Shown here in pieces: positions 16,827-40,860 of a stretch of DNA of 64,000 nt. Both the position numbers and the translations under genes were made by a program. The notes under the pieces are model-generated. The model did not search any database. It was not told the DNA's origin and saw nothing but the letters and a program-made list of their open reading frames with translations. How positions within the stretch are numbered: position 1 is the stretch's first letter; each line of letters starts with the position of its first letter. Origin of the DNA: a virus. The DNA is taken from the IMG/VR virus record IMGVR_UViG_3300050343_000261; one strand, given 5' to 3'.

Positions 16827-17618
16827 TTATTTTGAAGGAATAACCTTTCGTTTACTCCGTTCTTGCAGTGCAGCACTGAACTTTATTGGTTTGGCAGTAC
16901 ACATGTTACATACACTTTCAGTAAGTCTACTATTATTACAGAAATTTGTCAATGCATCATCACTACAATCAACAGGAACACCATCGACAAGATACTCCTG
17001 CCACTCAGGATCATCCTGTTGATCAGTCACATATAATAGTTCCCTCAGAAATGCTGTGTTGGGACACTTCCACAGTTTCCCATCATACAACTGTGCATTA
17101 GGACAAGAACAAACCTTGAAACTCTTTGCTGGATTCTTATGCTCGTAAGGATAGACCTTACCATCTCTCTTCTTGATAGAGTTGAACCACCTATCTTTAC
17201 CAGTATGGTGCTCAGTAACAAGAACCTTAGGGTGGTTGAACTCTTTGATGATCTGTTCTACTTCTGGTAGATGAATGCTAATCCTAAGAAATATCTGTGG
17301 ATTCTCTAGACTCTTTTTGATCCATGCTTCATTCTGTAGGAGCAATAGACCATTACTGTAGAGATAGACAGGAGAATCAGTGTGTGTTGTACATGCATTT
17401 ACAATCTCCTCACAACGGGGATTCAGTAGTGGTTCGCCACCAATGACGGACACTCTACCTATATTTACCCTAGGCAATAGAGTTGCTATGTCATCAAGCA
17501 AACTATCAGTGTCTACCTTACTACCAGGAGCAAAATAGTTACTGAAATGATTACAACCCTTACATTGAAGGTTGCAACCAATAGATGCACTGATATCTAA
17601 GATGTCAATTGATGCCAT
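16827..17618 (-). CDS. Radical SAM enzyme, paralog of 13812..14888
   Basis: GCNLQCKGCNH, IGGEPLLNP, SNG, CSCPNAQLYDGKLWKCP, CNMC; start placed at MASIDIL. Confidence 0.9.
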   Translation of the reverse strand: MASIDILDISASIGCNLQCKGCNHFSNYFAPGSKVDTDSLLDDIATLLPRVNIGRVSVIGGEPLLNPRCEEIVNACTTHTDSPVYLYSNGLLLLQNEAWIKKSLENPQIFLRISIHLPEVEQIIKEFNHPKVLVTEHHTGKDRWFNSIKKRDGKVYPYEHKNPAKSFKVCSCPNAQLYDGKLWKCPNTAFLRELLYVTDQQDDPEWQEYLVDGVPVDCSDDALTNFCNNSRLTESVCNMCTAKPIKFSAALQERSKRKVIPSK

Positions 17619-18420
17619 GATATGCCAAGTACGCAGCACCCATGGCAGTGCCTCCATCGTTTGCTAGTGGTTCTGCATAGAACCTGTGATCAGGGAATCT
17701 TCCCAATGCTTTGTAGTTTGCTACACAATTCAAGAAACATCCCCCTGCAAAGACAATATTTGTTGTAGGTGCCATACGGATCAGTTCTAACACCCTCTCT
17801 TCCCACTCTGCCTGCAAAGACTTGGCAGGTTCAGAATCATAAACACTCTTCCCCATAACCTTACCTGCATCCATGTAGTGCCATCCATATTGAACGCATG
17901 CCTCTTCAAATCTCCTACCAAAACCAATATTATCAGGAGAGAACATGGTCTTATGAATTACACCCCAAGTGGGAGCAAAGAAAATAGATTCTATCTCTAG
18001 ACCTTCAGGTGTCTTTGATCCATTAGAATCAACAACAATACAAGTGGCAGTCTCAAATCCTGAGTTGTAGAAACCACATGCAGCGTGTGTCATATGGTGC
18101 TTCTTTCTGTAGTCATACAGTGCGGCACCAGGAAACTTTCTCTTGACAGCAGACAACATCTTGATGTTATCAACCTGCTTGTTACCACGTTTCCAAAAGG
18201 AATCTGCCAAAGCAATGTGCTCTATTCCCTCAGGCAACATATCAAGTAGAGACCTGATGTCATAGTCATACTTTACATAGGAAACACGCTCTGCCTCCAG
18301 GTACCAAACAGGTTTACCATCCTCAAGTAGACAAGCAGATCCATTATTAGACAGGTTCAACCCTAGGAGCAAATTTTTTGCCCGAGTTTTTTTCCCACTT
18401 TTCTGTAAATGAAAAGTCAT
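17605..18420 (-). CDS. Carbamoyltransferase N-terminal (Kae1-like) domain, copy 2
   Basis: GLNLSNNGSACLL; EAERVS; HHMTHAACGFYNSGF; VVDSNGS; AGKVMG; GGCFLNCVAN; NDGGTAMGAA. Confidence 0.88.
   Translation of the reverse strand: MTFHLQKSGKKTRAKNLLLGLNLSNNGSACLLEDGKPVWYLEAERVSYVKYDYDIRSLLDMLPEGIEHIALADSFWKRGNKQVDNIKMLSAVKRKFPGAALYDYRKKHHMTHAACGFYNSGFETATCIVVDSNGSKTPEGLEIESIFFAPTWGVIHKTMFSPDNIGFGRRFEEACVQYGWHYMDAGKVMGKSVYDSEPAKSLQAEWEERVLELIRMAPTTNIVFAGGCFLNCVANYKALGRFPDHRFYAEPLANDGGTAMGAAYLAYHGIN
18371..18396 (-). repeat. A-tract repeat motif, copy 2 (GGGAAAAAAACTCGGGCAAAAAATTT)
   Basis: Matches the copies at 9741 and 25271. Confidence 0.7.
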
Positions 18421-19013
18421 TTTCGCACCAGCTTTCCAACCTCTGGAAAGTATAGGTATGGTATATCAGACTCATAGAATGTTTTGAATGCATCCTGCGG
18501 AGACTCTACTAATGGTTCACCTGCCAGGTTGAATGAGGTGTTGAACAGCATTGGGATGCCTGTCTTGTCCCAGAATGCACTGATTAGTTTGTAGTAGTGC
18601 TCGTTCTGCTGCTCAGTAACAGTTTGAATACGACAAGTCTTGTCGATGTGCAGGACACCTGGAATCAAATGCCAACCAGGTGGACGTGCATCCATGGCAT
18701 ACATCATGAACGGAGACTCGTCAAGTCCACGCATGTAAAACCAATCGTTTGCATATTCAAGCATGACACTGGCAGCAAATGGTCTCCAGTGCTCACGCTT
18801 TTTGATTAGATTGACGGTCTTCTGTGCTTCATGATCACGAGGATCATACAACAAAGATCTATTTCCAAGAGCACGAGGACCTGCCTCTGATCTGCCTTGG
18901 AACAATGCAACCACTTCTTTACCTGCGATGATGTCTGCTACATCTTTGTAAGTTACATCGTCACCGTCAACAAAGGAGAGATCGTATTCAGGACCGAGGT
19001 ACAGTGTTCTCAT
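18417..19013 (-). CDS. Carbamoyltransferase C-terminal (YrdC-like) domain
   Basis: LYLGPEY; FQGRSEAGPRALGNRS; KKREHWRPFA; HIDKTCRIQTV; NTSFNLAGEP. Confidence 0.92.
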   Translation of the reverse strand: MRTLYLGPEYDLSFVDGDDVTYKDVADIIAGKEVVALFQGRSEAGPRALGNRSLLYDPRDHEAQKTVNLIKKREHWRPFAASVMLEYANDWFYMRGLDESPFMMYAMDARPPGWHLIPGVLHIDKTCRIQTVTEQQNEHYYKLISAFWDKTGIPMLFNTSFNLAGEPLVESPQDAFKTFYESDIPYLYFPEVGKLVRK

Positions 19014-19980
19014 AATGTTCCAATAGAGCAGAACCGATGGCAAGACCGCCATCATAAGCAAGGGGATCTACATACAAATTTATACCAGTTTTTAGGAGAT
19101 GATGGTTAGCAATACAGTTGAGGAAAAATCCTCCTGTAAGAACCACGTTCTCCTTACCGGTCAATTCATATGCTTTCTCAAGCATGAACATAGCATGTTC
19201 CTCAGCAGACTTTTGTAGTCGATATGCTAAGTCTTCAGGGTGCCACTCATGCCCAGTATACCTGGTGGTATTACCTTCTGGACTGAGTTCAGTAGAGCAC
19301 ACGCTATGCCCATTGTCAATCTCAAATAGATCTATAGGTGCTGCACCGTAGGTGGACAGACCCATGGTCTTACCAGCATCAGTTTCATCAAACCCACAGT
19401 ATCGTGACACTCTACGATACGCCTGACCAACGCTGGTCCTATTGCTGTAAAAGTTTTTACCGTCCCAGAAAGAAGAATCTAACTTTTTAGACTCATCTTC
19501 GCTCCAGAACGTAGAGTAATGTTTGAAGACTGACTCAAACTTTCCGTCGTTTACGTCAAAAATACTTTCAGTCTCACAGAACTTCAGATCTTTATGATGG
19601 TGTAGAGAACCTTTACCATCCATGACGATGACAGCAGCATCTTTGAACTCAGAGTTGTAATATGCATTCGCTGCATGGCATTCATGATGCCTGTCACGAT
19701 AATCTTTTAGTGGAAGTCCTTTTTCCTTGACTAGATCAATGATTTTGTTTGCCTGCTTGGTTCTAAACAGGTATTTTTTCAAATTATATGTGGTATAGCA
19801 GTCACATATAGTGACCACACCAATAGAATCATCTAAAAATTGAGTCGCAGCAGTCAGAGCAGATCGATCTCTCTTGACACGACTCAATCTTTCTTCTTCA
19901 ATGTAGAATTGAACCTCACCATCCTCAAGGATGGCAAGAGACCCATTATGCGACAGATTTATTCCGCAGATTCTACCCAT
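18988..19980 (-). CDS. Carbamoyltransferase N-terminal (Kae1-like) domain, copy 1
   Basis: GINLSHNGS; EEERLSRVK; HHECHAANAYYNS; VMDGKG; AGKTMGLS; GGFFLNCIAN; DGGLAIGSA. Confidence 0.92.
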   Translation of the reverse strand: MGRICGINLSHNGSLAILEDGEVQFYIEEERLSRVKRDRSALTAATQFLDDSIGVVTICDCYTTYNLKKYLFRTKQANKIIDLVKEKGLPLKDYRDRHHECHAANAYYNSEFKDAAVIVMDGKGSLHHHKDLKFCETESIFDVNDGKFESVFKHYSTFWSEDESKKLDSSFWDGKNFYSNRTSVGQAYRRVSRYCGFDETDAGKTMGLSTYGAAPIDLFEIDNGHSVCSTELSPEGNTTRYTGHEWHPEDLAYRLQKSAEEHAMFMLEKAYELTGKENVVLTGGFFLNCIANHHLLKTGINLYVDPLAYDGGLAIGSALLEHYENTVPRS

Positions 19981-21299: not shown

Positions 21300-22412
21300 T
21301 CAATTGCTAAGTCTCTTCTTTCCGCAGTAGTCCGCACAGATGTGTGGTCTACTACTCCAAGAGTCTACCAGAGTATGCTGAAAAAAGGGAGTCTGTAAAA
21401 CATCTTGTAAGGATTGATGCTCTAGGGAGATGGTTTTGATACCACCCTGCTCCTCTATCAAAGGGATCACGTTGTCCCAAAAGACCTGCTGCATATACTC
21501 TGCACCCACTCCCTTGTTTGGGTTTTTGATGTCACGGAAGACAGCAGGTGCATCAGGGTCATTATCAATATAATATCCAGGATAGAAAAACCTGAGACGT
21601 GACTGATGGAAGCAGCAAGCATGCACCACACCCCTACTATCGATCCTCAGTTGACCAGGACTACCTTTGCTATGCTTATAGCGGCACACCACCTCTGAGT
21701 CCTCTGCTACGGGTTCTGGGTGGTACACATGGTCAGGATCGTCTGCTACCTGTAGGGTATGCACCTTATCTCGGTATGAATACGTAAATTTACCGTCACC
21801 ACGACCACTAGCGTCATACATATCATTGACCCGAGTATGCTGAAAGTCTTTGAACTTCCATAGTTTACTCAGCGTCTTACATCTTTTTATCTGATGTTGG
21901 TTGTGTTTGAAGACTAGCATCCTCCAAACAGCAGGACCACCTGCCGCAATGAATGCTTTAGCACTCCTCATTACTTTCTTATAGTCCACACCTACACGGT
22001 AATGCTGCAGTGTATCTTCTAGACCATCAATAGAAAAGATGAGGAAACTATCTTTATGTGATGCTCCCATGAGAGCACCAAGTCTTCCCCAAAATGCATC
22101 GTCACGAGTGCCTCCATTGGTACTCATCTGGAAAACAATATTGGGATTTGACTTTAGAGTATAGGCATATATTTCAAGCAGATCATCACACAATGTAGGC
22201 TCACCAAAAGACCCTTGGAAGTAGATCAACTCTGTCTTCTCAAGGGTTTTTTGAGGGAACCATGTCTTCCACTGATCAAGAGAGATCTTTGACAAGTTCA
22301 TTGATGGGTCAGGTGCAAGCACCGCAACTTCATCATTGTATGATGTCTTATGCCTAGCACACAGAGGACACTTGGAGTTACAATGATCTGTTAGATCAAT
22401 GAGAAACTTCAC
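21300..22412 (-). CDS. Radical SAM enzyme with twitch/SPASM-like C-terminus
   Basis: DHCNSKCPLCAR; GSFGEP; STNGG; FSIDGLEDT..YR; VVC...RIDSRGVVHACCF; C..YCG. Confidence 0.9.
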   Translation of the reverse strand: MKFLIDLTDHCNSKCPLCARHKTSYNDEVAVLAPDPSMNLSKISLDQWKTWFPQKTLEKTELIYFQGSFGEPTLCDDLLEIYAYTLKSNPNIVFQMSTNGGTRDDAFWGRLGALMGASHKDSFLIFSIDGLEDTLQHYRVGVDYKKVMRSAKAFIAAGGPAVWRMLVFKHNQHQIKRCKTLSKLWKFKDFQHTRVNDMYDASGRGDGKFTYSYRDKVHTLQVADDPDHVYHPEPVAEDSEVVCRYKHSKGSPGQLRIDSRGVVHACCFHQSRLRFFYPGYYIDNDPDAPAVFRDIKNPNKGVGAEYMQQVFWDNVIPLIEEQGGIKTISLEHQSLQDVLQTPFFQHTLVDSWSSRPHICADYCGKKRLSN

Positions 22413-24575: not shown

Positions 24576-24872
24576 TTAGTAAAGGTTCTCCTCTTGCTCA
24601 GTAAGAATAGTAACGTCAGAAGTTGGGTAGGAGACACAGGTCATCAAGAAACCTGCTTCTAGTTGATCATCGTCTAAGAATGACTGATCACTTTGATCTA
24701 CAGTACCCGATTCAATTTTTCCTGCACAAGTGGAGCAGGCACCTGCACGGCAGGAGTAAGGAAGATCAATACCTGCCTCGTCAGCAGCATCAAGGATGTA
24801 TTGATCATGAGCACACTCGATAGTGTGTACTTCTTCAGGAGTCTTGAGAGTAACAGTGAACATAGGATTCAT
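24576..24872 (-). CDS. petF: Plant-type [2Fe-2S] ferredoxin
   Basis: [16 protein letters not shown]...[12 protein letters not shown]...TCVSYPTSD. Confidence 0.97.
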
Positions 24873-25192
24873 TGAACGTGAACGGTGCCAGTCATACCTG
24901 CACTTTGGTGAGGTCCACAGAAGAAGTTATAGTCTCCTGCATCAGCAAATACAACGTCTTGTGATTCTCCAGGAGCAAACAATAGTGATTCTCTAGAAAG
25001 ATCAGGACGTGCCTCTACAATAATATTATGTGGAGGTAGTGATTCATTGATAAAATGAACCGTATCACCTACAGAGATTGTAATCTCATTCGGTTCAAAT
25101 ACTAGGTTTCCATTAGCACCCATCGTTACATCCACTGCCCATGCAGGTAAAGCAAGGAACAGTGAAGCGATTAGCACAAATAAAGGCTTCAT
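24869..25192 (-). CDS. petE: Plastocyanin
   Basis: Signal peptide; PPHN; [10 protein letters not shown] (Cu ligands His/Cys/His/Met). Confidence 0.95.
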
Positions 25193-25241
25193 TTGCAATT
25201 CGCAGACACGTTATGTATCTGAGTATAAACTCTCACATATA

Positions 25242-25271
25242 ATTGTATCACATAAAAAACCTGGGTGTCAA
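25242..25271 (-). promoter_or_regulatory. Sigma70-type promoter for petE-petF
   Basis: TTGACA-18 nt-TACAAT with TGn extended -10; A-tract motif directly upstream of the -35. Confidence 0.7.
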
Positions 25272-25307: not shown

Positions 25308-26753
25308 CTAATTATCGATTTTGGTTTCCTGATCTTTTCTGAAGTTAGGACGTTGCTTATCGTAATTACTCCACTTGTTATACAACTCTGACCTCTTGTC
25401 TTCACGTGGATCATGGATGATATAACTTTCATCACCACGCTCTGGGAAGAAGTCTTGCATCTCTCCCTCACGATCCAGGTCGAGGGTGATGCAGTGTAGT
25501 CCACCGTCCCAGAAGTAACGATGCCTAAAGTTCACCACGTGACCTGTAATTCCATGCCTATCAAAGGCATCAAAGACAGTCTTGTTATATCCATTACAGA
25601 TAACATTCTTCTCGTCAACCACAAGCATGTTGACATCAAAGACACTCTCTTCAACATAGATTACCCAGTCATTCAACCAAGTGTCTATGAATTCAGTCAA
25701 AGAATCATTGTCTTCTTCTCCAGGAACCCACCAGCGTCCCTTATTTTTCTTCTTCATCTTCAGGAAACCATCCACCTGTTTCCATCCAGCACCTTGAAGA
25801 CGCACAACCTCCCAATCAGGGAAAGTTTCACCAAAGAATTCAGGTTTACTAATAGAAATCAACAGTCCTGGTTTGACTGGGGTCAAAGCACCATCACCAT
25901 GTCCAGGAACATACAGAGGGTGTCGTCTAAACTCAGGGAACAGACGCTCCCATTTCTCCATGAACTTATCTTGGTTCGCAAGGTTCATGATGTTATTCAA
26001 AGAGAAGTATAGATCTCTGCCACAACTAATTACTGCAGCACTATTGACGTACTGATTATATACAACTTCCCCACCCTGTTCTTTGAACCACTTCTCTGCA
26101 TCCTGATACTCATTATATTCTTTGTTGACCCTGTGAGGGTCACCAATTGTATTAGTAACAGCACTCAAGCACAGTCTCTCCATGTCCTCCAGGTCTAATC
26201 CAGCTAGTAGTCCACCCAAACTATAAGTATTCCCATCCCGACGCTGTGAACCATAATTCAAATAGTAATCACGCAACTCCTCAATAGGATTAGTATTCTC
26301 AACACCTCTAGCAGGTTTCATCATATCAAGGATGAACTCTGCAACCAACTCAGCACCCGGTTGCAACCACTCATGCTTACATTTTGGATTATGAAGACCA
26401 TTGATCATCTCGCGAAGATCAATGTTCTTCAAGTAATCACTGTTAGGCATGTATAATTTATTACCAATCACCGCAAGGTGATCCCGTGGAATCATTGCCG
26501 AAGGATACTTAGCTTCGTATCCACAGTTATGATCCTTCTCCCAGTCGTCAGAAATATTAGTTCTAATTACATTGACACCCAACTCCGTCAGTTTGTCACA
26601 GAGTTTTTGATAATCTTCCTCAGTTTCTTGAGCAATCTTCTCCATCCCAGCACGTGCTTTGGGATCTTTGATATAAGAATAAAACTCTGGAGGATATGAC
26701 CGACCTACCAAGCACGTTTTTAGTTTATCCCACGGTTGATATACTGATGGCAT
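25308..26753 (-). CDS. Amidinotransferase (AGAT/StrB1 family), paralog 2
   Basis: WDKLKTCLVG; IPRDHLAVIGN; PGHGDG (catalytic HxD); FDVNMLVVDE; DGGLHCIT (catalytic Cys). Confidence 0.88.
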   Translation of the reverse strand: MPSVYQPWDKLKTCLVGRSYPPEFYSYIKDPKARAGMEKIAQETEEDYQKLCDKLTELGVNVIRTNISDDWEKDHNCGYEAKYPSAMIPRDHLAVIGNKLYMPNSDYLKNIDLREMINGLHNPKCKHEWLQPGAELVAEFILDMMKPARGVENTNPIEELRDYYLNYGSQRRDGNTYSLGGLLAGLDLEDMERLCLSAVTNTIGDPHRVNKEYNEYQDAEKWFKEQGGEVVYNQYVNSAAVISCGRDLYFSLNNIMNLANQDKFMEKWERLFPEFRRHPLYVPGHGDGALTPVKPGLLISISKPEFFGETFPDWEVVRLQGAGWKQVDGFLKMKKKNKGRWWVPGEEDNDSLTEFIDTWLNDWVIYVEESVFDVNMLVVDEKNVICNGYNKTVFDAFDRHGITGHVVNFRHRYFWDGGLHCITLDLDREGEMQDFFPERGDESYIIHDPREDKRSELYNKWSNYDKQRPNFRKDQETKIDN

Positions 26754-26771
26754 AACAATATTAGACCTGCA

Positions 26772-28097
26772 TTATTTAGAACGCTCTGGGAAAAAGTCCT
26801 GCCTTTCTCCTTCGCGATCCAGGTCAGTAGTAATACAGTGTAGTCCACCGTCCCAGAAGTAACGGTGCCTAAAGTTGACCACGTGCCCAGTCACACCATG
26901 CTTCTCAAAGAAATCAAAAACATCTTTATTATAGTTGTTGACGATGACATTCTGCTCATCAACAACAAGCATGTTGACATCAAATACAGTCTCCTCAACG
27001 TAAATGACCCAGTCATTCAACCAAGTGTCTATAAATTCAGTCAAAGAATGATTGTCTTCTTCTCCAGCAACCCACCAGCGTCCATTATTTGGTAATGAAT
27101 TTTTCATGTTGGAGAACTCTTCTACTTGAGACCAACCTTGCCCACCGATATTACAAACATCCCAACCAGGGAAAGTTATATCAGTGTGCTTTGGATCGCC
27201 AATACTAATCAAGCACCCAGGTTTGATTGGTGCCAATGCTCCGTCAGAATGTCCAGGGAAATGTAGTGGATGGATTCTATAATCAGGGAACATCTTCTGC
27301 CATTTCTCAAGAGCATAGTCCTCATTGATATAAGTAAGAATATTATTGATGGCAAAGTAAAGATCCTTTCCACACTTGATTGTCGAAGCACCATTCACAT
27401 ACGAATTATAAACAACCTCTCCTCCCTGTTCTTTGAACCAATTCTCTGCATCTTGAAACTCATTGTATTTTTTATTGACTCGACGTGGATTGCCAATTGT
27501 ATTTGTCGCAGCACTCTCACATAATCTAGTGACATCATCAATGTGCAATACCTGCATCAACCATCCAATAGGAAAGTCTTTTCCATCTGTCAAAAACTTA
27601 TGTGCTTCCTCAACAACCTCTTTAGATGCGGCAGCCTGACCTTTAGAACCACGACCAGGTTTGACAAGATCTAAAAGATACTCACTGAGGACTTGTGCTT
27701 CTGGTTGATTTTTTGCGTACTCAGCATTGTCCCGGATAGCATAGATCATATGTTCGACATTTATATCCTCCAAATAATCATGATTCGGCATGTATAACTT
27801 GTTTCCCAGAACCATAGTATGATCACGAGGGATCATGGCAGAAGGATAGTTAGCTGTGTACCCCCAGTTATGATCCCTCTTCCAGTCGTCAGAAACATTA
27901 GTTCTAATTACATCAACGCCTAACTCAATAAGTTTATTGGACAGTCTTACAAAATCCTCTTCAGTTTCTTGTGCAATCCTTTCCATCCCAGCACGTGCCC
28001 TAGGATCCTTGATGTAACTATAAAATTCAGGAGGGTATGATCTTCCAACCAAACATGTTTTCAGTTTATCCCATGGTTGATTTACTGAAGGTGACAT
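26772..28097 (-). CDS. Amidinotransferase (AGAT/StrB1 family), paralog 1
   Basis: Same motifs: WDKLKTCLVG; IPRDHTMVLGN; PGHSDG; FDVNMLVVDE; DGGLHCIT. Confidence 0.88.
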   Translation of the reverse strand: MSPSVNQPWDKLKTCLVGRSYPPEFYSYIKDPRARAGMERIAQETEEDFVRLSNKLIELGVDVIRTNVSDDWKRDHNWGYTANYPSAMIPRDHTMVLGNKLYMPNHDYLEDINVEHMIYAIRDNAEYAKNQPEAQVLSEYLLDLVKPGRGSKGQAAASKEVVEEAHKFLTDGKDFPIGWLMQVLHIDDVTRLCESAATNTIGNPRRVNKKYNEFQDAENWFKEQGGEVVYNSYVNGASTIKCGKDLYFAINNILTYINEDYALEKWQKMFPDYRIHPLHFPGHSDGALAPIKPGCLISIGDPKHTDITFPGWDVCNIGGQGWSQVEEFSNMKNSLPNNGRWWVAGEEDNHSLTEFIDTWLNDWVIYVEETVFDVNMLVVDEQNVIVNNYNKDVFDFFEKHGVTGHVVNFRHRYFWDGGLHCITTDLDREGERQDFFPERSK

Positions 28098-28115
28098 AGC
28101 ATAAAAATACCTGCT

Positions 28116-28334
28116 CTATTTAGAGAACAGGTAGATGAGACCAGGGATGATGATGAAAAACTGTGGAAGGAAATTCATGACGATTGCACGTTCCTTCCAC
28201 TTGAATCCCACGTATGTCCAACCACTAGCACCTACAAGTTGGAGGATACTATTCCAGGGAGTCCACCCCATCACATGAAAAACCATAGCGATGAGGATGA
28301 TGGTTGCAGAAAACCATTTGATTTGTTGAACCAT
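28116..28334 (-). CDS. Small multi-pass membrane protein
   Basis: IKWFSATIILIA...PWNSILQLVGASGWTYVG..WKERA...NF; three hydrophobic segments. Confidence 0.65.
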   Translation of the reverse strand: MVQQIKWFSATIILIAMVFHVMGWTPWNSILQLVGASGWTYVGFKWKERAIVMNFLPQFFIIIPGLIYLFSK

Positions 28335-29272: not shown

Positions 29273-29484
29273 TCGTCCTTCTTGTAAAGGTCTTCTAGTT
29301 TTTCTCTAGTTAGATCAACATACATTACTTCTTCTCCTGCTTGTGGTGCTTCAGGATGACGTGGTTTAGGGGGTTTATTCATCTCTATAGAAATAGATTG
29401 AATATTAGTCCACATCATAGCAAAAGCAGTGCCCGAAAGCACTGCAAAGCAGACAAAATAAAGGGCAAGTTCAAAGGTATTCAT
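29269..29484 (-). CDS. DUF2973-like small membrane protein
   Basis: LYFVCFAVLSGTAFAMMW..HPEAP..GEEVMYV. Confidence 0.65.
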   Translation of the reverse strand: MNTFELALYFVCFAVLSGTAFAMMWTNIQSISIEMNKPPKPRHPEAPQAGEEVMYVDLTREKLEDLYKKDE

Positions 29485-29872
29485 GAAGTCTTCGTTTTAT
29501 AAGATGGTCTATTGAGAAGTTACCTGGACCACTGAGGACGATACATGCTGCACCTCCCCAGTAAAGAACTAAAAGTTCTAACAAGTAGATGTTGAATCCA
29601 GATGTAACTAGAGCATGATAAATTGCGAATGATATTGTACCTAAGATTGCTAAGGCACCCAGACGAGTGCCAAGTCCACAGATAACCATCCAACTCCCCA
29701 CAACCTCAGCAAATGCTGCGAAGTATGAGGAGACGATTGGGAATGGAAGATGCAATGGTCGTACAAATGCATCCGCAAAGTTTTCAATGTTCTCTAGTTT
29801 CTCATAACCATGATGGATAAGCATAGTGCCTAACGCTATGCGAAGTAATAAGAATCCTAGAGACTGAATCAC
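29471..29872 (-). CDS. DoxX family membrane protein
   Basis: [19 protein letters not shown]; AEVVG..ICGLGTR; [10 protein letters not shown]. Confidence 0.85.
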
Positions 29873-30924
29873 AATGCGTTACCTCTTGGTAGAACTTCTT
29901 CTGGGAATACAAAGTTCTCGTGGGGTTGGTCAACTGGTGCCAACCATGCACGTAGTCCTTCGTTGAGCAAGATATTTTTCGTATAAAAAGTCTCGAACTC
30001 AGGATCCTCAGCGGCACGAATCTCTTGACTTACGAAATCATAAGCACGAAGATTGAGAGCCAGACCAATAATCCCAATGCTAGATGTCCAGAGACCCATG
30101 ACAGGAACAAAAAGCATAAAGAAATGAAGCCAACGCTTGTTACTAAAGGCAACACCGAAAATCTGAGACCAGAAACGGTTTGCCGTAACCATTGAGTAAG
30201 TTTCCTCTTCCTGCGTAGGTTCAAAAGCTTTGAAGGTGTTTGCCTGTTCACCATCTTCAAACAGTGTGTTCTCCACTGTAGCACCATGAATTGCACAGAG
30301 CAAAGCACCGCCAAGGATACCTGCAACACCCATCATGTGGAAGGGGTTTAGCGTCCAGTTGTGAAATCCTTGGAGGAATAAGAGGAATCTAAAAATTGCC
30401 GCAACGCCAAACGACGGTGCGAAGAACCAACTCGATTGACCCAGAGGATAGATAAGGAAGACAGAAACAAAGACAGCAATAGGACCAGAGAAAGCAATTG
30501 CATTGTAAGGACGAATGCCGACGAGACGTGCGATTTCAAATTGTCGGAGCATGAATCCGATGAGTGCGAATGCACCATGCAGGGCAACGAATGCCCAGAG
30601 ACCACCGAGTTGTACCCAGCGGACAAAGTCACCCTGTGCTTCTGGACCCCATAGAAGGAGAAGACTGTGACCCATTGCATCAGCAGGTGTACTGACTGCA
30701 GCGGTAAGAAAATTGCAACCTTCTAGGTAAGACGACGCGATGCCGTGGGTGTACCAGGAGGTAGCGAAGGTGGTGCCAGTTAGCCAACCACCAATTGCCA
30801 TGTAGGCAGTGGGAAGTAGAAGTAGTCCAGACCAGCCGATGAAGACAAACCTGTCCCGTTTCAACCAGTCATCAAGGATGTCAAACCATCCTCGTTGGTT
30901 TTGCTGAAGCGTTGAAGCGACCAT
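29869..30924 (-). CDS. psbD: Photosystem II D2 protein
   Basis: [16 protein letters not shown]...EVLPRGNAL; full length, no intron. Confidence 0.99.
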
Positions 30925-31259: not shown

Positions 31260-32339
31260 TCAACCGATAGCAGGTGCGGTGAGTGCAACAGGAGTTGACT
31301 CAGCAGCAGCAAGATCGAGTGGGAAGTTGTGTGCGTTACGCTCATGCATAACTTCCATACCCAAACCTGCACGGTTCAGAACGTCTGCCCAGGTGTTCAA
31401 CACACGACCCTGACCATCAAGGATGGACTGGTTGAAGTTGAAACCGTTGAGGTTGAACGCCATCGTGGACACGCCAAGGGCGGTGAACCAGATGCCAACA
31501 ACAGGCCATGCAGCAAGGAAGAAGTGCAAGGAACGTGAGTTGTTGAATGAAGCGTATTGGAAGATCAAACGACCGAAGTACCCGTGGGCAGCTACGATGT
31601 TGTAGGTCTCTTCTTCTTGACCGAACTTGTAACCATAGTTCTGTGACTCTTGCTCAGTCGTCTCACGAACCAGCGAGGACGTAACAAGCGAACCGTGCAT
31701 AGCACTGAACAGTGAACCACCGAAGACTCCAGCAACACCCAACATGTGGAAGGGGTGCATGAGAATGTTATGTTCGGCTTGGAAAACCAACATGTAGTTG
31801 AAGGTTCCCGAAATGCCCAAAGGCATAGCATCGGAGAACGAACCTTGACCAAATGGGTACACCAGGAATACTGCGGACGCAGCCGCAACAGGAGCAGAGT
31901 ATGCGACACAGATCCAGGGGCGCATGCCCAGACGGTAAGAAAGTTCCCACTCACGTCCCATATAGGCATAGATGCCGATAAGGAAGTGGAAGACTACCAG
32001 TTGGAAGGGACCACCGTTGTATAGCCACTCATCAAGTGAGGCAGCTTCCCAGATGGGGTAGAAGTGAAGACCAATTGCGTTGGAGGATGGGACAACTGCA
32101 CCAGAGATGATGTTGTTTCCATACATGAGTGAACCAGCGACGGGTTCACGGATGCCGTCAATATCGACGGGGGGTGCTGCTACGAAAGCAACGATGAAGC
32201 AGATGGTTGCCGCCAACAGAGTTGGGATCATCAGTACACCAAACCAACCGACATAGAGACGGTTATTGGTGGAAGTAACCCACTCGCAGAACGAATCCCA
32301 CGCGGAGGTTGTTTGTTGTTGTCTTGAAAGAGTAGACAT
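31260..32339 (-). CDS. psbA: Photosystem II D1 protein
   Basis: [13 protein letters not shown]...HNFPLDLA; uninterrupted; Glu at position 130. Confidence 0.99.
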
Positions 32340-32344
32340 TGAAA

Positions 32345-32450
32345 AGGGTAAGGATAAGTGCGGGGAACACTAGTATGATATTCCTGCTGCACCCTCAGCA
32401 ACAGGTATTAGAGACGTTTTTATTCTCCCTATAGGTCTCGGTTTGAGGGG
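32345..32450 (-). ncRNA. PhotoRC-II cis-regulatory RNA in the psbA leader
   Basis: AAACCGAGACCTATAGGG..TAAAAACGTCTCT..ACCTGTTGC-TGAGGGT-GCAGCAGG hairpin immediately 5' of psbA. Confidence 0.75.
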
Positions 32451-32477
32451 AGATCATTACGCTTTGTAACGTATTTG

Positions 32478-34172: not shown

Positions 34173-35110
34173 ATGGGGTGTGGGAAAAAGAATGGATCAT
34201 CAAAGTGGGATCTAATAGTTCGACTCGGTCTTCGTATGACACCAGTCTTTCTATTGGTATACCACAGAAGACTGTGATATGGATTCAAAACGTTCAATTT
34301 TCTGTACTTATAATCGAAATCATCTGACATATCACCGAACAACCAGACAGGTTTATCATTTTTAGTAAGAAGAGCACAGCGATAGTTCCTTGAGTTCTTT
34401 TCCAGACCTGTCACCCCACATAGAATGTCTACTGCCCACTCAGGATTGACATGATACTCAGCACCATACCTACCACCCTTGTTCGCCCACCACTCACCAC
34501 CATCACTGGCGTCTGACCATACATCAATCAATTCTCTAGCAGGAATAGTTTCATACTTCATACCACTCATCTGCAATGCCACTGCAAAGGACAGTTGATC
34601 CCTCCTACCACCCTTCAAGTACCAATCCCACCATAGTTGGTCGAAGTCAGTCTTACCACGCCTCCAGAGGATCGTACACAGGGGTGACAGATAGTCCTTG
34701 AAGTTATACCCTGCCTCCACAGCAGCAACCGTGAACTTATACACATCAGCGAAAGGAACAAGTCCTCTACAAATATATTCAGCACACTCTTCAAGATACC
34801 TATGACAATGTGGATGCTCTATTACAGTAAAACTATCCTGAGAAAGAATGTAATTACTTACTTCACAAAATTTATTGTTTAGTGTATGAAGTTTAGATGC
34901 ATCGATATACACATTTGGTTCATCAAATGGGCACAACATCTTTACCAGACGTGACATACGCACAGGATCAGATGAGAACCCAGGTATGTACTCTAGTTCC
35001 CAACCTTCCTGCTCCTTCACACTTCCATCATGGAAACAAACACACCTACAATCAATATCTAATTGTGGTAACTGAAAGTATCCGTTAGTAATGGATGTAT
35101 AGAGGATCAT
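34169..35110 (-). CDS. DUF616-like glycosyltransferase-like protein
   Basis: LYTSITNGY; YIDAS; HPHCHRYLEE; RRDQLSF. Confidence 0.75.
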   Translation of the reverse strand: MILYTSITNGYFQLPQLDIDCRCVCFHDGSVKEQEGWELEYIPGFSSDPVRMSRLVKMLCPFDEPNVYIDASKLHTLNNKFCEVSNYILSQDSFTVIEHPHCHRYLEECAEYICRGLVPFADVYKFTVAAVEAGYNFKDYLSPLCTILWRRGKTDFDQLWWDWYLKGGRRDQLSFAVALQMSGMKYETIPARELIDVWSDASDGGEWWANKGGRYGAEYHVNPEWAVDILCGVTGLEKNSRNYRCALLTKNDKPVWLFGDMSDDFDYKYRKLNVLNPYHSLLWYTNRKTGVIRRPSRTIRSHFDDPFFFPHPI

Positions 35111-37584
35111 ATAATGTCATAGTGTTTCATGTAGAACTCATGAAACTTATATTTGATATACAAAAGTGGTTTTAGTTTGGTAATTTTCTCTAGATCTTTT
35201 ATGAACTGATCAACCTTGGTGTACTGCTTCTTGTCCCCATACTGAGGATGCTTCTTGACTCTACCAACCTTGTGCTGGAAACCCATCTTGATTCCAGAGT
35301 CAGACCTGTTCTCATAATACAGAGGTTTGGTGCCAGTCAATTGAACAGCAGCATCAAAAGGAATACTATCCCTATTGATACCTTTCTTACTCCAATTATA
35401 CCACTGCTCATTGAATTCTATAGTCTCATCGTACAAATATCTCCATACGATTGAACACTGAGGACTAGAATACTTATTGAACTTATATTTTGTGGCACTC
35501 AGTGCCTCAGTGATCTCAATTCCCCCCTCATAGGGGAAGAAAGCACATGTAAATCCTTCCAACAACTCATCATAGTATGAGAACTTACTGATGTTCCTAA
35601 GTGTGGTAAAAGGGAAGGAATACAAACTCTTCTCAACAAACTCTCGGGTATGTTTGAAGCACCCATCCACCCACACAGTGTAAGTTCCTTTCTCAAAAAA
35701 CTCATGGGGGTTACACTTTGGATAGAACGCCAAGTCTCGTGGACAATCAATATCAAGATCTAATTTGATGTACTCCCATGGACCCTTGGTAGTATCAATA
35801 GTGCCATCATGAAAACATACGTATCTTATTTCAGGATCATAGTAATTCTTATCTGGTATCACATCATGTCCATTAGTGATGCATGTATAGATGACAACAA
35901 ATCTTTTATCGACACGGACACCTTCTTGATAAGGATAAGTATTGAATGACAGTCCTAAACTACCACCAATACCATAGTATTTCATGTAAAACTCATGGAG
36001 TTTGTACTTACAAAACAACTTTGCTTCATATCCAGTCTCTCGATCAATTTCCATAAGGAACTGATCCACCTTTTTATATTGCTCTAGGTCACCCAGTTGC
36101 TCATGCTTTTTGATTCTACCTTTCTTGTTATTGAAACCAAATTGTATACCACAGTCATCCCGGTTATCATAGAACCGGGGAGTTACTCCTGTGAACTGCA
36201 TGGCAGCATCAAAAGGAATCGTATCTCGATTTAGATACCCCTCCTCATACCATTTCTTATTGAACTCGATTACCTCCGGAGTCAACTGTCTCCAGACAAC
36301 AGAGCACTGTGGACTAGAATATTTTAGGAAGTCATATCCCGCCGATGCCAGATACTTGGTGTAGTTGACTGCTGTGTTGTACCTATAGAAAGCACAAGTA
36401 AATCCTTCCAACAACTCATCGTAGTATGAGAACTCTCCTCCATGACGCAGGACCGAGAAAGGAAAACATCCAAGAGATCTTTCAATAAAATCATAAGAAT
36501 GATCAAAGCATCCATCAACCCATACTGTATATGAGTTAGGAGGAAAAAACTCATGAGCATTTGCTTTGACATAGAACGCCAACTCTCTTGGATTATCAAT
36601 ACCAAGATGAGAAACATCAATATACTTCCAAGAACCTGACATCTTTTGACTATCAGGAACAGATAACTTCCCATCATGGAAGATCCAATAGTTTACGTCT
36701 GGATCAAAGTAAAAACTTTGAGGGATATCATAATCATTAGTGATACATGTATAAACATTCAATTGATTATGTTTGATTCTTTCTCCAAATTCATGAGGTA
36801 AAGTGGGCACTGCTGCCTTCATCATTGCAGAAGTAATATCACTGTCCCAGATTTTTACTAATTTATTTTGAAAGTCAGTGATCTGTTTGTTGGTTGGTCG
36901 ATCAATATTATAAGATTCTTCGTACTTCTTGACCCTATTAGTGTTGTCAAGACTGACCTGCATCGGTACACGCAGTGCTGTCAGTCCTGTCTCATACTCA
37001 GCAAGTGCACTAGCAATTTGATCACGGTTGACTCCTCTCCTATACCACCGTGCCCATGCTCTGTTCCACTGTCTATTCTCTTGGAAGTTATGTCTCCAGA
37101 CAACGCAGTTGATTGTTTGTTTGTAATCCTTTTTAGGGTAAGGATCATAACCAGCCAGCATCCTCTCGGACATCCTGGTAATTTCTAAACTGTCAGAAAA
37201 TCCTTCGGCATATAACTTATTGAACTCTTCAAGCAAACTGCGGGGGTCAGGGTGCTCTTGTAGTACAACAAAACTATGAGGATGCCGAAAGACTTTCCTA
37301 CTATATTCAACAAGATCTCGGGTTATATTATATGCTGCGTCTACCCACACAGTCAGATCAGAAGACTGTGTGAAGTATATATGCGGTTCATGCTTGATAA
37401 CATATGACTTCCTAACAGGACAGTCAGGAAGTTCTACATTTAGATCATCAAGATGTACATACTCCCACGGACCTTTGGTTGTAGGAATGCTTCCATCATG
37501 GAACAAAACATACCTACAACCTTCCTCAACATATGCGTCGGGGACAGAATCATATCCGTTGGTTATGCACGTATAAAAAATCAA
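35107..37584 (-). CDS. Protein with three tandem DUF616-like domains
   Basis: YTCITNGYD / YTCITNDYD / YTCITNGHD begin three repeats, each with WVD(A/G) and NRD motifs. Confidence 0.8.
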   Translation of the reverse strand: MIFYTCITNGYDSVPDAYVEEGCRYVLFHDGSIPTTKGPWEYVHLDDLNVELPDCPVRKSYVIKHEPHIYFTQSSDLTVWVDAAYNITRDLVEYSRKVFRHPHSFVVLQEHPDPRSLLEEFNKLYAEGFSDSLEITRMSERMLAGYDPYPKKDYKQTINCVVWRHNFQENRQWNRAWARWYRRGVNRDQIASALAEYETGLTALRVPMQVSLDNTNRVKKYEESYNIDRPTNKQITDFQNKLVKIWDSDITSAMMKAAVPTLPHEFGERIKHNQLNVYTCITNDYDIPQSFYFDPDVNYWIFHDGKLSVPDSQKMSGSWKYIDVSHLGIDNPRELAFYVKANAHEFFPPNSYTVWVDGCFDHSYDFIERSLGCFPFSVLRHGGEFSYYDELLEGFTCAFYRYNTAVNYTKYLASAGYDFLKYSSPQCSVVWRQLTPEVIEFNKKWYEEGYLNRDTIPFDAAMQFTGVTPRFYDNRDDCGIQFGFNNKKGRIKKHEQLGDLEQYKKVDQFLMEIDRETGYEAKLFCKYKLHEFYMKYYGIGGSLGLSFNTYPYQEGVRVDKRFVVIYTCITNGHDVIPDKNYYDPEIRYVCFHDGTIDTTKGPWEYIKLDLDIDCPRDLAFYPKCNPHEFFEKGTYTVWVDGCFKHTREFVEKSLYSFPFTTLRNISKFSYYDELLEGFTCAFFPYEGGIEITEALSATKYKFNKYSSPQCSIVWRYLYDETIEFNEQWYNWSKKGINRDSIPFDAAVQLTGTKPLYYENRSDSGIKMGFQHKVGRVKKHPQYGDKKQYTKVDQFIKDLEKITKLKPLLYIKYKFHEFYMKHYDII

Positions 37585-38327
37585 TTTAGTTTATCCACAG
37601 GTTGCGACTTACCCAATGCTTCACTCACTGTACGGTTTGTGACATTACCAGGTTCACGTAAGAACCATCCAGTAGCAATGTACTTAGATTCATTACCCGT
37701 AAGGAATGAACCTCTGTGCATGTGAGTATACGTAGCAGGCCAAAGAACAATAGTTCCTTTCTTAGGATGGAACGTTTTCTCCTGGTGATAGAAGTCAGTG
37801 CCGCCACCATTCTCAGGAGGGATATCATTCAGATAAATCATCCACGTCAGCACACGGTCACGGTAGAGGAAGTTGCCATTCTCACAATGCCATACATGGT
37901 ATCCACCACCTGGATCAGTGCGTTGTAGTTTGCAGGTCCAAGAAGAAATTGGATCACAAGAATCAACGAGACCTTTGTACTTCTGTACGTACATCTCAAA
38001 TGCTTGACCAATTGCTTGGTTGACCTGAGCGGTCATCGTTGTGTCACAAACTTCAAGATAGAGTTGATGGTCCTTACGACCCATGCCACCTTTAGGGAAT
38101 TGGGATTCCCCATCATTGAAGTGGTCAATGGTAAAATCATTGTCTCCAATTTTTGTGACGGCATGCTCGGAGGATTCTCCTACGAAATGCTTTTTGTTGT
38201 ACCAGTATTCAAAAACCTCACGCAAAGAATCACAGAATTCCCAGCGTACAAAGTTCTCAAAGATACCTATGTGATCATAGAAAACTGGTTCAGTGAAGTC
38301 AGGTTGTTTGATGATCTCTTCTGTCAT
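37581..38327 (-). CDS. 2OG-Fe(II) oxygenase (prolyl 4-hydroxylase-like)
   Basis: GGGYHVWHCE; LTWMIYLND; GGGTDF; WPATYTHMHRG; KYIATGW. Confidence 0.9.
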   Translation of the reverse strand: MTEEIIKQPDFTEPVFYDHIGIFENFVRWEFCDSLREVFEYWYNKKHFVGESSEHAVTKIGDNDFTIDHFNDGESQFPKGGMGRKDHQLYLEVCDTTMTAQVNQAIGQAFEMYVQKYKGLVDSCDPISSWTCKLQRTDPGGGYHVWHCENGNFLYRDRVLTWMIYLNDIPPENGGGTDFYHQEKTFHPKKGTIVLWPATYTHMHRGSFLTGNESKYIATGWFLREPGNVTNRTVSEALGKSQPVDKLN

Positions 38328-39124
38328 TGTTTCTGTGCTTGTTCCATGTACACTGATGGTGGTATTCTACCACAATATTCGTCTAGTTCCATAATCTGAT
38401 CGACAGTATGCTCCCTAGCATCTCTCTCCCAGAACTGTGCTAGTGCCTCATTACTACCCTTATGAAAGATGTCAATATGTTCTTCATGAATTGAAGAACC
38501 CATGTCCAATCTGTAATTGAATAGGGGAGTAGAGTAAGACTTACCACTGTCAAGAATCAAATCCTCTGACACTGCACGAGGTTTGATGTTCTGATCCAGT
38601 TTCCACTGATTGCCACGGAGGTGACACCTAAGGACCTTGGTTGCATGGTGCCTGCTGATTAGATAACCAGCAGCAGAGAAATCATTGATGAACCTTTGAT
38701 GTAACTTGAGAGTAATCCCATTGGGATTGATGATGGTTAGTTGCAGGCAGTCCCAGTTGATGGGCAGTCGCTTCCTAACATCCTTCCAAGTGAAAGTCCA
38801 ATGCTTGACAGTGGAAAGATCAATGTCGTCCTCCATGATGAAGACTTCATCTAGGTCAGTCTCTTCGACAAAGTAACGCAGAGCATTTAGGTGAGACATT
38901 ACACATGCGATCTCACCTTTGTTCATATTATGAGGTACAGAACCCTTCAGGTTCTCCTCATACTCATCACCATCAATACCACTAATGCGGTGGTTATCAG
39001 TGAGTCCCCAGTAGTCCAATTGATCTTCCATGTATTCCCGTCGTTGGGTCACACGGTCTAGATTGATCCAAAGAACTTTAGGGAACCCCTTCAGTTTGTC
39101 GATAGACTTATTCCTATCAGTCAT
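38324..39124 (-). CDS. Glycosyltransferase family 25
   Basis: WINLDRVTQRR; GEIACVMSH; IMEDD; SAAGYLIS. Confidence 0.88.
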   Translation of the reverse strand: MTDRNKSIDKLKGFPKVLWINLDRVTQRREYMEDQLDYWGLTDNHRISGIDGDEYEENLKGSVPHNMNKGEIACVMSHLNALRYFVEETDLDEVFIMEDDIDLSTVKHWTFTWKDVRKRLPINWDCLQLTIINPNGITLKLHQRFINDFSAAGYLISRHHATKVLRCHLRGNQWKLDQNIKPRAVSEDLILDSGKSYSTPLFNYRLDMGSSIHEEHIDIFHKGSNEALAQFWERDAREHTVDQIMELDEYCGRIPPSVYMEQAQKQ

Positions 39125-40079
39125 CCGTGCCAGGGCGTTTGCCATTGCGGACACCACGATACACCATGTATAGGGGCTCCTTATAATATTCTTCAATAGC
39201 GTCCCTACTCATGTTGCCAAGTTTTTCCCACAACGCACGGTTCTCTTCGATGTGAGGGTTGTTGAACCAAGAGTTAGGAGTACGACGGTGCTCCATATGA
39301 TAGATCAAATCATTTAGACGCAGCACTTGTGAACAAAGATTGAAGCGACTATAACGTTCGTCATCTTCATATCCATAGGCAACGAAACCTTCATTCTCAC
39401 CACCAAGTCTGAGATATTCTTTGGTGTCAAAGAACTGTACGAAACCAAACTTGGCATCATATAGAGTTGCACTCTTCACAAATGCATTGAAGTTGAAGTT
39501 GCTATTGATGAACCGAGTACATTCCTCATCAGTAACTCGTAACTGATATTGATACTCTCCACACCCATAAGGATAGACACACTTCACAGGTTCAGGAGTT
39601 GCCTCAGGATCATTCGGAGGAATCCAACCATAAAGAATGGCATTCTGCGCCAAGATATAGTTGTTCATCGGCAGCAAGACATCGCAGTCATAGTTGCAGA
39701 CCACAGGGGTCTCAACCAACATCAGCATGTCGTTTATCAAACGAGTCCTATGGAAGACTTTATCATCACTCTCCTCAAAGATATGATGAATCTTTTCCAT
39801 CTTCTCAGGGGGCAATGCTTCATCAAGCATTGGCACCACACTCTTCAAGAAAATAGATTCAACATCATGTTCCTTGATAATAATCTGCGTGTCAAAGTTA
39901 CGCAGAAGATAGATTAGTGTTGTCGTGATGTTACGCATCCGATCAACACTTTCGATTCGCAAAGGAATGATGAAGGTTGTTTTAGTCAGGTCCCAGGAGT
40001 TTACCGGTTGGATCTGAAGATCCTCGTACATCCCAAGATCTTGAATTTCAACACCTTCTTGGTGGATTGTTTCAGACAT
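39117..40079 (-). CDS. GT-A glycosyltransferase with GT7-like C-terminal motif
   Basis: TFIIPLR; FHRTRLIN; NYDCD; GGENEGFVAYGYEDDER. Confidence 0.8.
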   Translation of the reverse strand: MSETIHQEGVEIQDLGMYEDLQIQPVNSWDLTKTTFIIPLRIESVDRMRNITTTLIYLLRNFDTQIIIKEHDVESIFLKSVVPMLDEALPPEKMEKIHHIFEESDDKVFHRTRLINDMLMLVETPVVCNYDCDVLLPMNNYILAQNAILYGWIPPNDPEATPEPVKCVYPYGCGEYQYQLRVTDEECTRFINSNFNFNAFVKSATLYDAKFGFVQFFDTKEYLRLGGENEGFVAYGYEDDERYSRFNLCSQVLRLNDLIYHMEHRRTPNSWFNNPHIEENRALWEKLGNMSRDAIEEYYKEPLYMVYRGVRNGKRPGTDD

Positions 40080-40860
40080 TGATAGATTTCCAGTTAGGGC
40101 AGTAAAGGTCAGAGGTGTCGTGGTCTTTAGTATACCCGTCACCGAACCAACGGTTAGGGGCGATGATTGTCTTGTCTGAGTTTGTACTCAACCAAGACCC
40201 CCACCATGAGAATGATGAGTTAGCAATGATAAAGTCGTGACATAGACTCATCATACAGAGGTCGGCAACATTGTCGCCACCCTCAGAGATCAAGAAACGA
40301 TCTTCTACAAATTGTTCGTTACACCAGGCAGGATCGTCAGAAAAAACAACGACAGTCCTGTCAGAATCAAAGTGCGAAAGGGCACGATCATAATAGTCCT
40401 TGGTGCATGGAGGGTGGTTGTCGCAGTTAGTTATGTAGTCACCCCTCCGAACATGTAGAGCAATTGGTCGGTCAACCGAACCAATCATTTCTTGACATGG
40501 TTCTTTGATATTATTTTTGAATTCAAAGTCCTCACGGATCTCAGATTCAATATGTTTGAACCACTTCTCGCTTTGTAGATACCCATAAACATTATGCCCA
40601 TCAGGCATCTTGTCAAACAGGTTCTTATCAAAGTGAAAGTGTTCTTCCTGAACATAAGGTCCAGGACATACCCCGATGTTTGTTAGTCCAGTAAGTTTGA
40701 AACACTCAAACAGTTGATGGTCAGTCCACTCATCTTTGAAATCGCTAGGAGGAATACAAAAATCGTATCCATGCTCAGCAGCAATACCACGTAGTCCTGC
40801 ATACTGAAACATCTGATTTCCTAGACGACCATGCCGACCTAGGTGATTGAATCCAATCAT
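40072..40860 (-). CDS. Glycosyltransferase family 11 (alpha-1,2-fucosyltransferase-like)
   Basis: GRLGNQMFQYA; GYLQSEKWF; HVRRGDY; FSDD; IANSSFSWW. Confidence 0.93.
   Translation of the reverse strand: MIGFNHLGRHGRLGNQMFQYAGLRGIAAEHGYDFCIPPSDFKDEWTDHQLFECFKLTGLTNIGVCPGPYVQEEHFHFDKNLFDKMPDGHNVYGYLQSEKWFKHIESEIREDFEFKNNIKEPCQEMIGSVDRPIALHVRRGDYITNCDNHPPCTKDYYDRALSHFDSDRTVVVFSDDPAWCNEQFVEDRFLISEGGDNVADLCMMSLCHDFIIANSSFSWWGSWLSTNSDKTIIAPNRWFGDGYTKDHDTSDLYCPNWKSINV

Follow-up and report, generated by a model that had tools for sequence, protein, structure and literature searches.

A 64,000-nucleotide stretch of viral DNA (IMG/VR record IMGVR_UViG_3300050343_000261, hereafter the window) carries two adjacent genes, AT-A and AT-B, whose products are related to the amidinotransferases AGAT, HsvA, StrB1 and SxtG. 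The window comes from a T4-like cyanomyovirus genome: its psbA and psbD genes share 83-84% nucleotide identity with those of Synechococcus phages ACG-2014a/i and S-MbCM100, and baseplate, tail-tube and head-closure genes are also present. The pair lies within the photosynthesis region, as stated in a preliminary description of this DNA, with petE on one side and DUF6552, DoxX, psbD and psbA on the other (Table 1). Both open reading frames (ORFs) are intact, with exactly the boundaries given in that description, and their tandem arrangement is confirmed by a deep virome.

Over 446 alignment columns, the two proteins have 64% identity and 78% similarity, and the divergence is unevenly distributed. 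Around the catalytic C-terminus, where the nucleotide sequences had been described as nearly identical, 48 of 52 bases agree; the C-terminal 300 nucleotides of the pair are 84% identical and the remainder 74-76%. The strongly diverged internal segment that had also been reported is readily found, residues ~105-190 being 22-36% identical vs. 73-97% in the flanks. AT-A ends in a disordered, charged tail of ~40 amino acids (residues 441-481, predicted local distance difference test score (pLDDT) below 50 in the AlphaFold2 model) that AT-B lacks. Over most of the alignment, synonymous change is at saturation (pS 0.5-0.95), whereas the core shows little non-synonymous change (pN 0.03-0.17). Because dS is saturated while core pN/pS is far below 1, both copies are old and constrained. 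Orthologues of AT-A are 80-92% identical in single-copy and paired relatives, and those of AT-B about 94% identical in four relatives with the pair (L012-L015). Gene conversion, which could have explained why the C-terminal nucleotide sequences are so similar, was mostly rejected, since synonymous saturation extends over the greater part of the gene. Two local dips in pS, at codons 338-367 (0.24) and 60-89 (0.34), may reflect a short patch of gene conversion or recombination; the first of them (AT-A 25650-25740 and its AT-B counterpart) shows 92% nucleotide identity and covers the GRWWxPGEE...WLNDW region.

Table 1. Features of the AT locus, in window coordinates.
Feature	Position	Strand	Remarks
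Radical SAM gene	21300-22412	-	
DUF6433 and small ORFs	between radical SAM gene and petE	-	
petE	24869-25198	-	
AT-A (P0001)	25308-26753	-	481 amino acids; adjoins petE; ORF and translation
Cys421 codon of AT-A, predicted nucleophile (GGLHC)	25491-25493	-	aligns to AGAT Cys407 (GGFHC)
Variable helical insert of AT-A, residues ~105-215 (core 115-180)	26109-26441	-	occupancy, pLDDT, pN
AT-B (P0002)	26772-28097	-	441 amino acids; paralogue of AT-A; ORF and translation
CTAAATA, late-promoter-like motif	26773-26779	-	ends 19 nucleotides before the AT-A ATG; built from the last codons and stop of AT-B
Equivalent Cys codon of AT-B, predicted nucleophile	26835-26837	-	
Matching variable insert of AT-B (approximate limits)	27471-27782	-	pairwise and family alignment
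10-bp hairpin, then T-run	28108-28133	-	loop CTAAATA (28117-28123), ending 19 nucleotides before the AT-B ATG
DUF6552	28116-28334	-	
223-amino-acid gene without assigned function	between DUF6552 and DoxX/TQO	-	
DoxX/TQO	29471-29872	-	
psbD	29869-30924	-	
psbA	31260-32339	-	

Fold and active site

Sequence profiles and the predicted structure both lead to the amidinotransferases. A single-sequence phmmer search of the PDB with AT-A returns AGAT (1e-9), then HsvA, StrB1 and SxtG, the matches lying in the last 73 residues. A profile of 42 family sequences finds AGAT (1e-24), HsvA (3e-21), StrB1 (1e-20) and SxtG (2e-19) and nothing else in the PDB, through four collinear segments that span the whole protein; no hydrolase appears even at E ≤ 1. 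The AlphaFold2 model (pLDDT 81, predicted template modelling score 0.82) adopts the five-fold pseudo-symmetric β/α propeller of the guanidino-group-modifying enzyme (GME) superfamily, with 211 PDB chains at Z ≥ 8 over residues 1-437. Foldseek matches this model to AGAT (9e-16) down to StrB1 (1e-13), with arginine deiminase (ADI) next at 2e-8. In VIA-align, the four amidinotransferases reach a Z of about 25.5 (25.4-25.8; root mean square deviation about 3.2 Å, ~277 residues, 22-24% identity), vs. about 21 for ADI, at 13-14% identity, and 17-19 for agmatine deiminase, DDAH and ArgZ. Clustering with the ADI/DDAH hydrolases, which the preliminary description had allowed for as an alternative outcome, is thus seen in neither comparison, and membership falls on the amidinotransferase side.

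Residues C421, H285, D91 and D287 align to Cys407, His303, Asp170 and Asp305 of AGAT and are invariant or nearly so in an alignment of 106 family sequences, in which residue conservation was counted. The nucleophile position is Cys in 104 of the 106, and the near-invariant set comprises D91, D247, H285, D287, W363, E369, D373, N375, R412, D416, H420 and C421. Both copies had been credited with the full catalytic signature. The PRD (D91), PGHGDG/PGHSDG (H285, D287) and GGLHCIT (C421) motifs are indeed present in each, but the AGAT Cys-His-Asp triad is incomplete: its Asp254, as named in PMC3684758, lies in FDAADFIRAGRDIF and aligns to VNSAAVISCGRDLYF, where both copies have Asn237. The substrate flap of AGAT (Asn300/Met302, NPMH) reads PGH here, and the family has invariant motifs of its own, GRWWxPGEE and RHRYFWDGG. 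Because the triad Asp is not kept, the viral family is, as judged from the alignment and the model, best filed as a sister to the amidinotransferase clade and not as a canonical member. The name 'glycine amidinotransferase' is not justified for it, since the substrate-binding residues of AGAT are replaced together with the triad Asp.

The closest characterised enzyme by profile is AGAT/GATM (PDB 1jdw), which shares the propeller fold (Z 25.4, 277 residues, 24% identity) and the N-terminal W-D-x-L and G-R-D motifs. In contrast to AGAT, which is mitochondrial or bacterial, this family is viral and adds an insert of ~60-100 residues after the PRD strand. SxtG (PDB 6u1r) and HsvA (5wpi) are equal-best fold matches (Z 25.8 and 24.5) and take cationic amine acceptors in pockets rich in Glu and Asp (PMC12371840); the many invariant acids of the viral family suggest a similar pocket and a cationic substrate. 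However, both enzymes keep the triad Asp (D209 in SxtG, PMC12371840), have no central insert and sit in bacterial toxin or virulence clusters, whereas the viral pair has no cluster partners. StrB1, an inosamine-phosphate amidinotransferase (PDB 1bwd), matches over 281 residues (Z 25.6, profile 1e-20); it differs in that it keeps the triad Asp, is only 22% identical, and belongs to an aminocyclitol pathway of which there is no sign near the viral pair. In streptomycin biosynthesis, paralogous StrB enzymes perform two separate amidinations, which is a precedent for a two-step scheme.

Distribution, insert and origin of pairs

The family is restricted to viruses and abundant in those of the ocean. 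More than 4,138 clusters at 90% identity match it, virtually all of them of marine metagenomic origin and all devoid of Pfam domains; a representative search (E ≤ 0.001) gives 688 clusters at 50% identity, and the nearest clusters are 98-100% viral according to the protein atlas. IMG/VR contains at least 503 confirmed loci, and at least eight studies have produced marine metagenomes and viromes with near-identical DNA. Some 185,000 cellular species genomes yielded 12 loci, all on contigs of metagenome-assembled genomes (MAGs), several with cyanophage gene order. The four matches among 50,697 phage records are three contigs of one single-cell virus and phage S-SCSM2R. The former, Marine virus AG-345-D19 (MH319720, MH319724, MH319727), carries three divergent copies (45%, 39% and 34% identity), one to a contig. 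PADLOC returns nothing for either protein, and the sole match in PHROGs is PHROG 25854, a family of unknown function.

Most loci are of cyanomyovirus type, and in dozens of them the AT site is constant, between psbA/psbD and petE/Grx/DUF6433/ThyX. The gene qualifies as an auxiliary metabolic gene (AMG), an accessory gene of the psbA-thyX variable region that nearly all cultured cyanomyoviruses lack. The corresponding region of S-MbCM100 is arranged differently from that of the window and provides no direct empty-site match. The nearest virus record (G001), a 9.5-kb fragment, lacks the genes and is uninformative on them, and the short contigs of P0124 and P0130 gave no gene context. Had such pairs already been well described in cyanophages, this would have counted against the preliminary description, but the literature contains no account of them: on the function of phage amidinotransferases it offers homology-based annotations only, of which just one concerns a shorter relative, in phage S-SCSM2R (PMC12801897). 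This relative, ORF266 ('glycine amidinotransferase'), is the sole one found in a cultured phage. Identity is 40% across 146 C-terminal residues, in which HxDG, FDVN and RHRYxWDGGLHC are found, and the gene likewise lies upstream of psbA. It differs in being 297 amino acids long, without the central insert, present in single copy and located inside an island of glycosyltransferase, KdsA, KdsB and 2-oxoglutarate (2OG)-oxygenase genes, and its name was given by homology.

The diverged internal segment of the pair coincides with an insert that is absent from family members of 340-380 amino acids (occupancy 0.07-0.25 in short members). The model shows it as five helices (pLDDT 58-79), and with a pN of 0.40-0.50 against 0.03-0.17 in the core it is the most diverged part between the copies. 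Against the background of any two family members whose cores are equally diverged, the insert divergence of the window pair is low (0.36 vs. 0.48 ± 0.11, 9th percentile); other co-resident paralogue pairs range from the ~35th to the 95th percentile. The preliminary description had taken the diverged insert as a pointer to two acceptors or two sequential amidinations. Either may apply, but the insert alone is no evidence for them: it is a fast-evolving and dispensable part family-wide, with no excess between paralogues. Its pattern is that in which the whole family evolves, and it is compatible with a specificity lid.

Two copies, head-to-tail or head-to-head, occur at 15 of the loci fetched. 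The tree places the two window copies in a clade of 16 rows (SH-aLRT 100), each in one of two sister sub-clades. AT-A is found among single-copy forms (L001, L016-L019), and AT-B branches off on a long stem (0.34) as the sister of L020 (support 91), a single-copy form at the same site. Because each copy groups with single-copy forms, recombination between phages that brought two diverged alleles together in tandem is as likely as duplication followed by loss. Locus L005 has undergone its own duplication (sister copies, support 100, 71% identical). The tandem pair of L008/L031 (55% identical) and the head-to-head pairs are each split across two deeper clades and may share one ancient duplication. 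On this tree, pairs have at least three separate origins, and since they have been retained repeatedly, two copies are presumably useful. A redundant or decaying second copy without a separate role is very improbable: it would agree with the single-copy state of the closest relatives at the same site and with an insert divergence that stays within the family background, but synonymous sites are saturated over a core of little non-synonymous change, the equivalents of C421, H285, D91 and D287 are kept in both proteins, four other loci (L012-L015, one of them in a complete 192-kb genome) hold both genes undamaged at 90-94% identity, other lineages acquired pairs repeatedly, and each copy has its own promoter-like motif. 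AT-A and AT-B are separately maintained old paralogues that most likely have different substrates or form a hetero-oligomer.

Expression signals and proposed chemistry

The heptamer CTAAATA, which precedes both genes, is a late-promoter variant of the T4-like phage Aeh1 (PMC1524935). In the window, five of its 13 occurrences lie 20-30 nucleotides before a same-strand start (~0.1 expected), and two of those five starts are of the baseplate-hub and head-closure genes (22-24 nucleotides). Across the family, TAAATA is found 16-24 nucleotides 5′ of AT in 21 of 91 distinct upstream regions and is nearly absent before neighbouring accessory genes. Neither an NtcA site nor the T4-consensus TATAAATA is present upstream of the AT pair. 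Because each gene has its own late-promoter-like CTAAATA, both are probably expressed late, alongside virion parts. In addition, contigs from two oligo-dT RNA libraries of one study contain parts of both genes and their junction at 99-100% identity, and the shorter relative ORF266 of S-SCSM2R was detected in purified virions (PMC12801897). Between the end of AT-A and petE (25242-25271, minus strand) lies a near-consensus sigma-70 promoter (TTGACA, 18 nucleotides, TG-TACAAT; 11/12). Since this site precedes petE and CTAAATA precedes the AT genes, the pair and petE seem to be under different promoter types.

The reading favoured here, at a probability of roughly 0.55, is that the pair encodes active, late-expressed, Cys-dependent guanidino-group transferases with probably cationic substrates. 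The donor, in the simplest case arginine or a compound resembling it, would be held by Asp91 and Asp287 and attacked at its guanidino carbon by Cys421, with His285 as the acid/base and an Asn or Ser (Asn237 here) in place of the triad Asp. The resulting S-amidino-enzyme intermediate would be resolved by an amine acceptor, giving rise to a new guanidino compound. In place of the AGAT carboxylate-binding positions, the family has an invariant set of acids (E368/E369, D373, D416 and GRWWxPGEE), which points to a donor or acceptor unlike free arginine and glycine, probably a cationic one. A Cys-His-Asn arrangement is workable chemistry, known from papain-type enzymes.

Several results weigh against this reading. 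The triad-acid position is occupied by N, S, G, T, P or H across the family and by Asp in just one of the 106 sequences, an outgroup member, whereas the triad Asp is kept in all characterised amidinotransferases (PMC3684758, PMC12371840; FDAAD in HsvA, Asp179 in StrB1). The carboxylate-binding positions of AGAT are not kept either: Ser354/Ser355 are replaced by an invariant Glu-Glu (E368/E369) and Arg322 by a variable residue (D, G, K, N or S). Because these arginine-carboxylate positions are not conserved, the donor is uncertain. Neither protein matches any Pfam or NCBIfam family at E ≤ 1, and a comparison with PF02274, proposed in the preliminary description as a check, gives no match for either. 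As a paralogue-specific signal, insert divergence was rejected, since it does not exceed the family background. The late timing is read from the motif and nothing else, and the contigs from the two RNA libraries may stem from DNA carry-over.

Part of the same evidence would suit guanidino-group hydrolases of the deiminase or dihydrolase type, which would free nitrogen from arginine, agmatine or another guanidine for phage synthesis in nitrogen-poor water. The fold and the set of Cys, His and two Asp are common to ADI, agmatine deiminase, DDAH and the cyanobacterial ArgZ/AgrE (Z 17-21), the active site is remodelled through the loss of the triad Asp and the AGAT substrate positions, one metagenome source names a member 'N-dimethylarginine dimethylaminohydrolase', and sequence by itself cannot tell transfer from hydrolysis. 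Hydrolysis is nevertheless judged unlikely, as the profiles match transferases only, with hydrolases missing at E ≤ 1, and identity to the transferases is ~10 points higher. Moreover, nitrogen scavenging would be expected early, to which the late-promoter motif is poorly suited, and the pair is not preceded by an NtcA-type site.

Guanidino-group transfer might also be directed at a macromolecule or virion component, candidates being capsid or tail proteins (through their amino groups), glycans of the virion and packaged polyamines; in that case, the enzymes would serve as virion-maturation factors. ORF266, whose gene lies inside the glycosyltransferase/KdsA/KdsB/2OG-oxygenase island, was detected in CsCl-purified S-SCSM2R virions, but the authors allow for carry-over of an abundant protein (PMC12801897). 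Such a role would agree with the acidic pocket, with the variable insert, which resembles a lid, and with the motifs of late-promoter type that precede the two genes, as well as with the large glycosyltransferase/2OG island near the pair in the window, from which, however, psbA, psbD and other genes separate the AT genes; speD, in turn, is absent from the complete related genome. None of the characterised enzymes of the amidinotransferase clade is known to act on macromolecules. A role in virion maturation seems rather improbable. Doubtful, too, is the more specific proposal that the family guanidinylates a virion protein, glycan or packaged polyamine late in infection by means of a Cys-His-Asn amidinotransferase variant, the two paralogues introducing two distinct modifications; if true, it would represent a previously unrecognised class of phage-encoded modification.

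With thousands of clusters, no Pfam model and essentially no presence in cells, the family is among the more abundant unannotated enzyme families of marine viromes. If the favoured reading of amidino transfer is correct, ocean cyanophages would make guanidino compounds from host arginine during infection, a route that current AMG catalogues lack and that matters to how nitrogen flows in infected picocyanobacteria. To enzymologists, the proteins would offer a naturally occurring amidinotransferase scaffold in which the canonical triad Asp is missing and the lid can be swapped, and the repeated retention of two paralogues a comparative system for specificity determinants.

Neighbouring genes

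The carbamoyltransferase, radical SAM and glycosyltransferase genes of the surroundings, whose co-occurrence with the pair had initially been suggested for a survey, are standing features of the cyanomyovirus region and show no specific tie to the AT gene. The carbamoyltransferase (NodU/CmcH-type, 17605-19980, minus strand) is split into three consecutive ORFs (Carbam_trans_N / _C / _N-like), a split that is kept in related metagenomic phages. The glycosyltransferase island (35107-44727, minus strand) comprises at least seven glycosyltransferase-like genes (TOD1/MUCI70, GT2, GT7C, GT10, GT17, DUF5672 and RXYLT1-like) and a 2OG-Fe(II) oxygenase.

In many lineages, the AT gene is directly adjoined by a member of c5, a cluster of ~150-amino-acid proteins with an invariant Cys-Pro and the motifs PPCP[FY]A and LEDHPD. 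Examples of c5 are L107:1492-1947 (in G002, a complete genome of the window's lineage), L005:9903-10349 and L073:3548-4000, with ~27 more loci. The window has no c5; in the complete 192-kb genome of its lineage, c5 lies 52 kb from the AT pair, next to clamp-loader genes and regA, and genes resembling c5 are also found in cultured cyanophages that have no AT. The most distant AT lineages, from phages unrelated to cyanomyoviruses, contain a cassette c5 - c42 - AT - DUF6614 (L083, L084, L087, L089-L091, L093, L095, L096), of which c42 and DUF6614, like speD, are absent from the complete related genome. A polyamine link through phage speD was rejected on account of this absence.

The evidence for c5 as a haem oxygenase is weak, and so are its domain matches (DUF6875 in 8 of 15 members and DUF1415 in one, 2e-4 to 3e-4). 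It has no sequence match in the PDB and none in Foldseek, and VIA-align places the haem enzyme AglA first, at a Z of only 5.8. For c42 as an ATE-like transferase, there is one weak Pfam match (ATE_C, 0.0034) and no PDB sequence match. A likeness to argolaphos AglA/AglC (PMC12866846) lies in the distant AT members of the cassette (L083-L096), where AT accompanies a c5 whose top, weak fold match is AglA; the lineage of the window differs, with c5 ~52 kb away and without the ATE_C-like and DUF6614 genes. The neighbour context of the family hints at guanidine chemistry but does not define the product in the window.

On MAG contigs of Pseudobdellovibrionaceae (L097-L101), distant AT homologues of ~31% identity are found among several radical SAM genes of 360-460 amino acids and c5, in surroundings that look like a peptide or natural-product tailoring cluster. 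The NtcA-type sequence GTA-N8-TAC occurs 21 times in the whole window vs. 10.9 ± 3.2 expected, a count reached by no shuffle, and these sites are mostly intragenic. Just 5′ of psbA lies a PhotoRC-II RNA motif (Rfam RF01717, 67 bits; 32370-32465, minus strand), which is annotated likewise in S-SCSM2R.

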